A stretch of 11,820 bases of DNA from a virus. Taxonomy: Duplodnaviria > Heunggongvirae > Uroviricota > Caudoviricetes. Shown here one piece after another: positions 10,261 through 10,336 of this stretch. Below the pieces are notes generated by a model. That model saw only the letters and a program-made list of their open reading frames with translations, was not told where the DNA came from and did not search any database. The position numbers and the translations under genes were made by a program. Where the stretch lies: the IMG/VR virus record IMGVR_UViG_2690316131_000005; one strand, written 5' to 3'. Numbering within the stretch: position 1 is the stretch's first letter; each line of letters begins with the position of its first letter.

Positions 10261-10336
10261 CCGCCACTAGCCATCAGGAAAGAGCGTCAACCCTTTAAGT
10301 TGAGTGTGCGAGGTTCGAGTCCCCGGTGGTGGTCCA
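10261..10336 (+). tRNA. atypical tRNA-like element (possible pseudo-tRNA); anticodon loop CCTTTAA
   Basis: Acceptor CCGCCAC/GTGGTGG (C1-G72, one G-U pair), good anticodon stem TCAAC/GTTGA, T-loop TTCGAGT with one A-C mismatch in the stem, encoded CCA; but the D-stem pairs at only 2 of 4 positions and position 33 is C. Confidence 0.4.

Follow-up and report, generated by a model that had tools for sequence, protein, structure and literature searches.

Whether a tRNA gene that carries a lysine anticodon but departs from the rules of tRNA architecture in several places is a pseudo-tRNA, a structurally unusual working tRNA or a tRNA-like element with another role is the question raised by a three-tRNA array in 11,820 nt of the virus record IMGVR_UViG_2690316131_000005 (Caudoviricetes). 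This stretch is called the window below, and its positions serve as coordinates throughout. The middle member of the array, at 10261-10336 on the plus strand, is a 76-nt tRNA-shaped element that is called tRNA-Lys(ttt) by ARAGORN. As judged from comparison with its relatives, covariance scoring and predicted folding, this element is probably a pseudo-tRNA, or at best a crippled tRNA, in a degrading prophage. Of the three options, all of which had been offered by an earlier, sequence-only reading of the locus, the first therefore fits the window copy best, while a separate tRNA-like role has gained no positive support.

In order, the element consists of CCGCCAC TA GCCATCAGGAAAGAGC G TCAAC CCTTTAA GTTGA GTGTG CGAGG TTCGAGT CCCCG GTGGTGG T CCA. 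The acceptor stem comprises seven pairs between CCGCCAC (10261-10267) and GTGGTGG (10326-10332), including C1-G72 and a G3.U70 wobble. The D-arm GCCATCAGGAAAGAGC (10270-10285, plus strand) retains G18, G19 and A20, while T12 of the GCTC strand is missing between 10271 and 10272, so that pairing is possible only for G10-C25 and C11-G24, where three to four pairs are expected. The anticodon stem TCAAC/GTTGA is formed by five pairs and encloses a loop of seven nucleotides, CCTTTAA (CCUUUAA; 10292-10298, plus strand), with C32, C33 (10293), U34-U35-U36 (10294-10296), the purine A37, and A38. Stem, loop size and A37 are those of a canonical tRNA, and the anticodon with the adjoining A37-A38 is that of tRNA-Lys(UUU). 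The T-arm, CGAGG TTCGAGT CCCCG, has T54, T55, C56 and A58 in its loop and an A51.C63 mismatch in its stem. At the 3' end, the encoded CCA (10334-10336) is preceded by U73 as the discriminator, which is not the A73 of tRNA-Lys, and close relatedness to lysT is lacking as well. U33 is near-universal in tRNAs, and C33 is expected to impair the U-turn of the anticodon loop. The C33 at 10293 is also unusual locally, with T33 present in 73 of 73 unique tRNA sequences outside the argN family in the fetched loci. The departures from a canonical tRNA thus concern the D-stem, position 33 and the Rfam score reported below. The defective D-stem, C33, anticodon UUU and C1-G72, to which the sequence-only reading had drawn attention, are all found in the sequence and in the ARAGORN model where it had placed them, and its statement that acceptor stem, anticodon stem, T-loop and CCA are kept holds equally. 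The A51.C63 mismatch, the U73 discriminator and the G3.U70 wobble had escaped it.

Alignment with the arrays of Shiga toxin (Stx) phages reveals what the element derives from. Base for base, it fills the slot of argN, the gene for tRNA-Arg(UCG), in the order ileZ-argN-argO downstream of the late antiterminator gene Q. Across the aligned arrays ileZ and argO are nearly invariant, and the middle gene alone differs. Family members were collected by three pattern scans of IMG/VR and GTDB genomes, two of which required an intact T-arm and acceptor pattern, and from annotated loci. The resulting sample contains 221 copies, and the element is the positional orthologue of a tRNA gene in these relatives rather than a chance match. 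With the argN family it shares the position between ileZ and argO, the C1-G72 acceptor and the T-arm GGTTCGAGTCC, but not an arginine anticodon (UCG or UCU, with C35), in place of which it has UUU. The C1-G72 pair is present in essentially every family member, including the canonical argN PA18, and is replaced by U1 in two rare alleles. It is therefore a lineage trait and not a defect. While the D-stem and C33 do break near-universal tRNA rules, as had been claimed, C1-G72 does not belong on that list, being a family feature that accompanies a score of 54.8 bits in argN.

The comparison with argN of Stx2 phages (933W-type PA18; 2851, 1717, F349) can be taken further. Common to all are the slot, the C1-G72 acceptor, G18, G19 and A20 in the D-loop, the T-arm and the CCA. 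The segment of the window element that spans the T-arm, the 3' acceptor strand, U73 and CCA (10309-10336, plus strand) equals the 3' half of argN in the Stx2c phages F349, 2851 and 1717, A51.C63 and G3.U70 included. The window element differs from argN in its loop (CCUUUAA versus CUUCGAA), in its anticodon stem (A30-U40 and U27-A43 versus G30-C40 and U27.G43), in the deletion of one D-stem base and in its score for the Rfam tRNA model RF00005 (below 15.7 bits versus 43-55 bits). The 3' half is shared with the F349/WGPS6/1717-type argN of Stx2c/Stx2a phages (L002 3112-3188, L004, L009). In F349 and 1717 both flanking spacers are shared with the window, too, whereas WGPS6 has a longer spacer after ileZ. 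The combination of a shared 3' half and shared spacers points to recombination inside the tRNA gene. We also considered the change from G30-C40 to A30-U40 as a compensatory exchange indicative of selection but dropped this argument, because the ancestor is unclear and UCAAC/GUUGA is an ordinary anticodon stem of tRNA-Arg(UCU) in unrelated organisms.

Among the 221 family copies, 137 have the loop CCTTTAA, 69 have the anticodon UCG, one has UCU and 14 are aberrant. C33 and UUU, which the sequence-only reading had listed for the window copy, are thus not private to it: they define a lineage of 137 sampled copies and are invariant in every one of them. In our scans, only E. coli and Shigella yielded members of the lineage. 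A form with U33 and UUU, or with C33 and another anticodon, was not found on the same arm in IMG/VR, and none of this family was found in the JGI metagenomes, where three matches to the same-arm search proved to be unrelated tRNAs. The commonest allele of the lineage, a00 (n=71), is 77 nt long and has a four-pair GCTC/GAGC D-stem, G3-C70, C33, UUU, A51.C63 and U73. Relative to a00, the window allele a03 (n=15) lacks T12 and carries C70T (C70U), and a18 (n=2), which has the T12 deletion only, is intermediate. Accordingly, the D-arm reads GCTCATCAGG in a00 and GCCATCAGG in both a18 and a03. The D-stem of the window copy is therefore defective because T12 has been deleted relative to the 77-nt allele. 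Allele a00 is identical to an Arg-UCU allele of the family at 69 of 77 positions and to PA18 (933W-type) argN at 62 of 77, compared with about 47 of 79 for lysT of the host (K-12). It thus combines an arginine-type body with a lysine anticodon.

The usual setting of a00 is an Ile(CAU)-Lys-Thr(UGU)-Gly(UCC) array in E. coli lambdoid prophages, in which the main Thr and Gly alleles are identical to thrU and glyT of K-12. Three phages deposited as isolates contain the array, 606R7 and 689R5 with a00 and PhiR47_1 with a09. The Prokaryotic Genome Annotation Pipeline (PGAP) labels the second gene of these arrays tRNA-Lys. This gene and the window element have C33, UUU, the anticodon stem, the variable loop, the T-arm with A51.C63, and U73 in common and differ at two positions: the gene of the four-tRNA array has a D-stem of four pairs and G3-C70, reaches 44.4 bits and precedes the thrU- and glyT-identical genes, whereas argO comes next in the window.

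The gathering threshold of RF00005 is 29 bits and is not reached by the window element, which scores below 15.7 bits. A permissive Rfam scan of 311 nt yielded a single tRNA-clan match to it, namely to tRNA-Sec (15.7 bits, E=1.6). Its relatives score far higher: 54.8 bits for argN PA18, 56.7 for the Arg-UCU allele, 43.0 for argN of F349, 44.4 for a00 and 37.0 for the copy of phage Evi. For the window allele, the cloverleaf is predicted to be 7.9-8.2 kcal/mol less stable than the minimum free energy fold, compared with 2.7 kcal/mol for a00 and 2.2 kcal/mol for E. coli lysT. Note that minimum free energy folding as such was dropped as a test of function, since genuine argN alleles and lysT do not adopt the cloverleaf as their lowest-energy fold either. 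A canonical alternative fold for the window element was likewise sought and rejected, as nothing but the 15.7-bit tRNA-Sec alignment emerged and a bulged three-pair D-stem brings no gain in energy. The fall in score from 44.4 to below 15.7 bits together with the widened cloverleaf gap indicates that it is the deletion in the D-stem, rather than C33 or C1-G72, which probably makes the window copy unrecognisable as a tRNA. Two outcomes had been named by the sequence-only reading as speaking against an atypical element. A high covariance score with a canonical alternative fold did not occur (less than 15.7 versus 29 bits). Relatives that are ordinary tRNAs with point differences were largely found, in the form of the argN family and of a00, which scores 44.4 bits and is separated from the window copy by the T12 deletion.

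These results also account for conflicting annotations. GenBank records based on ARAGORN label the window element tRNA-Lys. PGAP leaves it unannotated in genomes with a 100% match to a 111-nt query (10240-10350), although it assigns tRNA-Lys to the intact sister allele a00. In complete genomes, 225 E. coli records are at least 99% identical to this 111-nt stretch, and in the 12 records listed PGAP shows only tRNA-Ile and tRNA-Arg at the array. The T12-deleted allele occurs in O145 and O111:H8 strains, so that the carrier prophage is present in at least two serogroups.

The decay is not confined to the element. A prophage of strain E2865 is 99.85% identical to the window as a whole over 11.7 kb, and many of its genes are frameshifted or interrupted, including those for integrase and a TerB-family protein as well as nleA. 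In the window itself, the third gene of the array, an argO-type tRNA-Arg(UCU) (10350-10426, plus strand; 68.1 bits), has drifted, too: its T-loop contains A59C, and the encoded CCA is lost and reads CTA (10424-10426), which we count as decay around the element. The first gene, an ileZ-type tRNA with anticodon CAU (10184-10259, plus strand; 72.5 bits), is intact, identical to the Stx-phage copies and annotated as tRNA-Ile by PGAP. Of the two flanking tRNAs described as canonical in the sequence-only reading, the CAU tRNA thus deserves the term, while the Arg-UCU tRNA does not do so fully. The same argO variant, with A59C and a CTA end, is present in phage Evi.

Sister arrays have suffered more severely. 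In Stx2c phages of O157 (L005 1104-1169; also in the O157 genomes H127-H135), a 12-nt deletion removes the anticodon loop, no tRNA is annotated, and the middle gene is unambiguously a pseudo-tRNA. It is scrambled in mEp460-type phages (L008), and Thr or ileZ genes have decayed in L015 and L139. A truncated prophage (L013 1445-1754) shows array-wide decay, with all four tRNAs altered: a stem break and a T-loop change in ileZ, U8C in the middle gene, A9C in the Thr gene and T11C in the Gly gene. Pseudogenisation is therefore common in this system. Like the tRNA pseudogenes of cryptic prophages, the window element has lost a stem base, scores below threshold, resides in a pseudogene-rich prophage and has wrecked sister arrays. 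Unlike them, it retains most of its cloverleaf, and its parent allele is widespread and well conserved.

We propose that one branch of the argN family switched its anticodon loop from CUUCGAA or CUUCUAA to CCUUUAA and thereby gained both the lysine anticodon UUU and C33. The window copy would then have lost T12 and taken C70U, with the consequence that half of the D-stem disappeared, the predicted cloverleaf was strongly destabilised and covariance detection was lost. Its RNA may still be co-transcribed with the neighbouring tRNAs and processed at its ends, and such processing may persist because the helix of acceptor and T-arm and the CCA are intact. To decoding, the window copy most likely adds little or nothing.

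Several observations weigh against this view. The case for non-function of the window copy is a structural one, and no damage is seen in its acceptor stem, anticodon stem, G18-G19, T-loop, A37 or CCA. Three-pair or weak D-stems are tolerated in some genuine tRNAs, and a bulged D-stem of three pairs (G10-C25, C11-G24, C12-G22) can be drawn for the window copy. Identity of at least 99% in 225 records could reflect purifying selection as well as recent clonal spread. In addition, a00 is about as conserved as the Thr gene, so that the lineage as a whole shows no obvious sign of faster decay than genuine tRNAs. In 109 loci, the UUU gene has 15 haplotypes and 18 segregating sites compared with 16 and 16 for the Thr gene, while nucleotide diversity (π) is 0.025 for the UUU gene, 0.005 for ileZ and 0.011 for Thr. 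When used to test for constraint, nucleotide diversity proved ambiguous, π being high but haplotype and segregating-site counts resembling those of Thr, and the mosaic flanks provide no neutral reference for the comparison.

Many alleles of the lineage carry damaging changes, which speaks against its function, namely U8C (a02, n=17, below 29 bits, and its derivatives), G18A, A58G and several stem breaks. A second switch to UUU has taken place in the same array: in five IMG/VR contigs (L187, L162, L158 and L147 among them) an otherwise thrU-identical Thr(UGU) gene has acquired UUU through G35T within a normal CUUUUAA loop and carries A26G in addition, always together with the middle-gene allele a08 (U8C, restored A51-U63, G73).

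Further family members with unusual anticodon arms deserve mention in their own right. Allele a07, a second family member of 82 nt (L010 4901-4982; also L215, L070, L042 and L135), is found some 800 nt downstream of the array, with a terminator-like hairpin on either side. It has compensated acceptor and D-stems (U4-A69, A10-U25) and an aberrant anticodon arm with the loop ACGUAUU, is without PGAP annotation and gives only a weak tmRNA-clan match in Rfam (19.4 bits). 'Anticodon' loops of 6 or 11 nt occur in Salmonella diarizonae (L139 2762-2835), Edwardsiella hoshinae (L143 6699-6775) and Citrobacter amalonaticus (L144 2-75) and likewise in mEp460-type loci (L008, L111, L037, L049, L072). These members keep acceptor, D and T arms and CCA and have the stem xxGAC/GUUGU or xxAAC/GUUGU. 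One possibility is that they are old pseudogenes, another that they form a tRNA-like RNA with no decoding role.

In principle, the invariance of C33 and UUU can also be explained by function. The C33/UUU branch, possibly including the window copy, would then be a working lysine tRNA that evades defence nucleases such as PrrC and AriB, the latter belonging to PARIS, and lets decoding of AAA and AAG continue once the host tRNA-Lys(UUU) is cut; from the sequence comparison we regard this as rather unlikely for the lineage and as more doubtful still for the window copy. PrrC cuts between positions 33 and 34, and C33 adjoins this site. AriB cuts host tRNA-Lys(UUU) and tRNA-Thr(UGU) at U36AAUC|A41, and T5 tRNA-Lys resists it via U39A and A41C, with distal positions mattering as well, so that phage variants neutralising PARIS are known (PMC12409363). 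Phage tRNA-Lys also rescues infection from PrrC170 (PMC11555353), and phage tRNAs are often altered at nuclease cleavage sites (PMC10264068). By sequence comparison, the lineage combines the anticodon of the targeted host tRNA with altered bases at the cleavage site, reading U36AAGUU41 where host lysT has U36AAUCA41, on a body that has little more than half of its positions in common with lysT. A supply for rare codons, which ileZ, argN and argO may offer, would make no sense for a lysine tRNA. The lack of any U33 form in IMG/VR or the JGI metagenomes and the presence of the array in isolate-deposited phages fit such a function, as does the polymorphism that resembles that of the canonical Thr gene. 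The UUU gene is usually located beside Thr(UGU), and tRNA-Thr(UGU) is the other prime target of AriB; the apparently independent switch of that neighbour to UUU would then mark a second response to this selection. However, the main Thr allele includes the AriB site of thrU and is not a resistant variant, and the idea that the adjacent Thr and Gly genes are resistant variants was rejected because of their identity with the K-12 genes. A tRNA-targeting nuclease was not present in the same prophage in the annotated neighbourhoods inspected, which counts against nuclease evasion. The restriction to E. coli and Shigella suggests that the lineage is young, and its invariance may reflect shared descent. 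C33 in place of U33, U73 in place of A73, the many damaged alleles and a π five times that of ileZ argue in the same direction. As regards folding, the window copy, with its broken D-stem and a gap of about 8 kcal/mol, is below threshold, and a00 has values of 2.7 kcal/mol and 44.4 bits, though with C33. The tRNA-Lys(UUU) of T5 and SP15, which counter AriB and PrrC170, resemble the window element in being phage-borne, in having UUU and in differing near the cut sites (39-41 for AriB, 33 for PrrC). They are, however, canonical, experimentally active and encoded by virulent phages, whereas the window element has an Arg body, C33 and U73, is damaged, belongs to a temperate phage and is known from its sequence alone. 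A stronger form of the proposal, in which temperate lambdoid phages remade argN as a private, nuclease-escaping lysine decoder for lytic growth and the window contains a recently inactivated copy, strikes us as unlikely. Escape would in that case rest on the body and the anticodon loop (C33, G39-U40-U41). More speculative still is the thought that the altered tRNA might tune -1 frameshifting at lysine codons of late genes.

Two other explanations attribute the conserved parts to something else than lysine decoding. The element may be a tRNA-like structural or processing module, either an RNase P/RNase E signal that separates ileZ from argO or a decoy for tRNA-binding factors, in which case selection would act on the helix of acceptor and T-arm and on CCA only and would leave the anticodon half unconstrained. 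We consider this improbable. It would agree with the strong conservation of T-arm, 3' acceptor strand and CCA in the 221 copies, with anticodon arms that vary widely and include loops of 6 and 11 nt in several genera, E. coli copies among them, with the compensated stems of a07 in spite of its aberrant anticodon arm, and with the seven-pair acceptor stem and CCA of the window copy. Yet the conservation of T-arm and acceptor stems partly from the search design, since two of the three scans required these parts. In L005, L008 and L014, moreover, the middle element is absent or heavily deleted while ileZ and argO are intact, and the neighbouring tRNAs have RNase P determinants of their own. We know of no precedent for a decoy role. 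Finally, the element might still be an arginine tRNA, i.e., argN with point differences, and the ARAGORN label might be wrong. Positional orthology with argN, the same body and the retained A20 in the D-loop speak for this, but C35, by established identity rules the major identity element for arginyl-tRNA synthetase, is replaced by U, and UUU, present in all 137 lineage copies, pairs with AAA and AAG and with no arginine codon. This possibility appears very remote. A decaying pseudo-tRNA derived from argN thus remains our preferred interpretation of the window copy.

The 311 nt of the array region (10150-10460) occur unchanged, at 100% identity, in PPompW-type lambdoid prophages of Shiga toxin-producing E. 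coli (LC567818 and others), and LC567818 matches window positions 4149-10513 at 99.94%. In the E2865 prophage, about 195 nt separate the end of Q from the tRNA array downstream. A promoter-like site, TTGCAA-17-TATTAT (10146-10174, plus strand), ends 10 nt upstream of ileZ, and a terminator-like GC hairpin with a T-run (10440-10465, plus strand) directly follows the array. Both are consensus matches; the -10 element and the terminator-like hairpin are conserved in Stx phages. From its sequence, the array looks like a transcription unit of its own within the Q-dependent late region. A run of ten G residues at 10507-10516, upstream of the TerB-family gene, could be prone to slippage; PGAP marks an internal stop in this gene in the near-identical E2865 record. 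Two other RNAs exceed their Rfam thresholds in the window: the sok antitoxin RNA of a hok/sok-type module at 6751-6900 (103.9 bits), adjoining hokD, and the small RNA STnc100 at 11200-11372 (100.8 bits), downstream of the tRNA array.

The existence of the element is not new, given that GenBank already labels it tRNA-Lys. The open-access literature that was searched yielded nothing relevant on ileZ/argN/argO or on prophage tRNA-Lys, and a description of the origin by anticodon switching, of C33 or of the decay series was not found in the searchable literature. For the phages concerned, our comparison identifies the middle gene of the Stx-phage array as evolutionarily labile, with Arg-UCG, Arg-UCU, 'Lys'-UUU with C33 and several wrecked forms occupying the same slot, and sequenced strains and phages already provide intact, T12-deleted and U8C alleles. 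Should the intact C33/UUU allele be active, it would be a natural bacterial example of a working C33 tRNA and an isoacceptor built by anticodon switching on a foreign scaffold, and the anti-defence role of phage tRNA-Lys would extend from large virulent phages to common temperate prophages.

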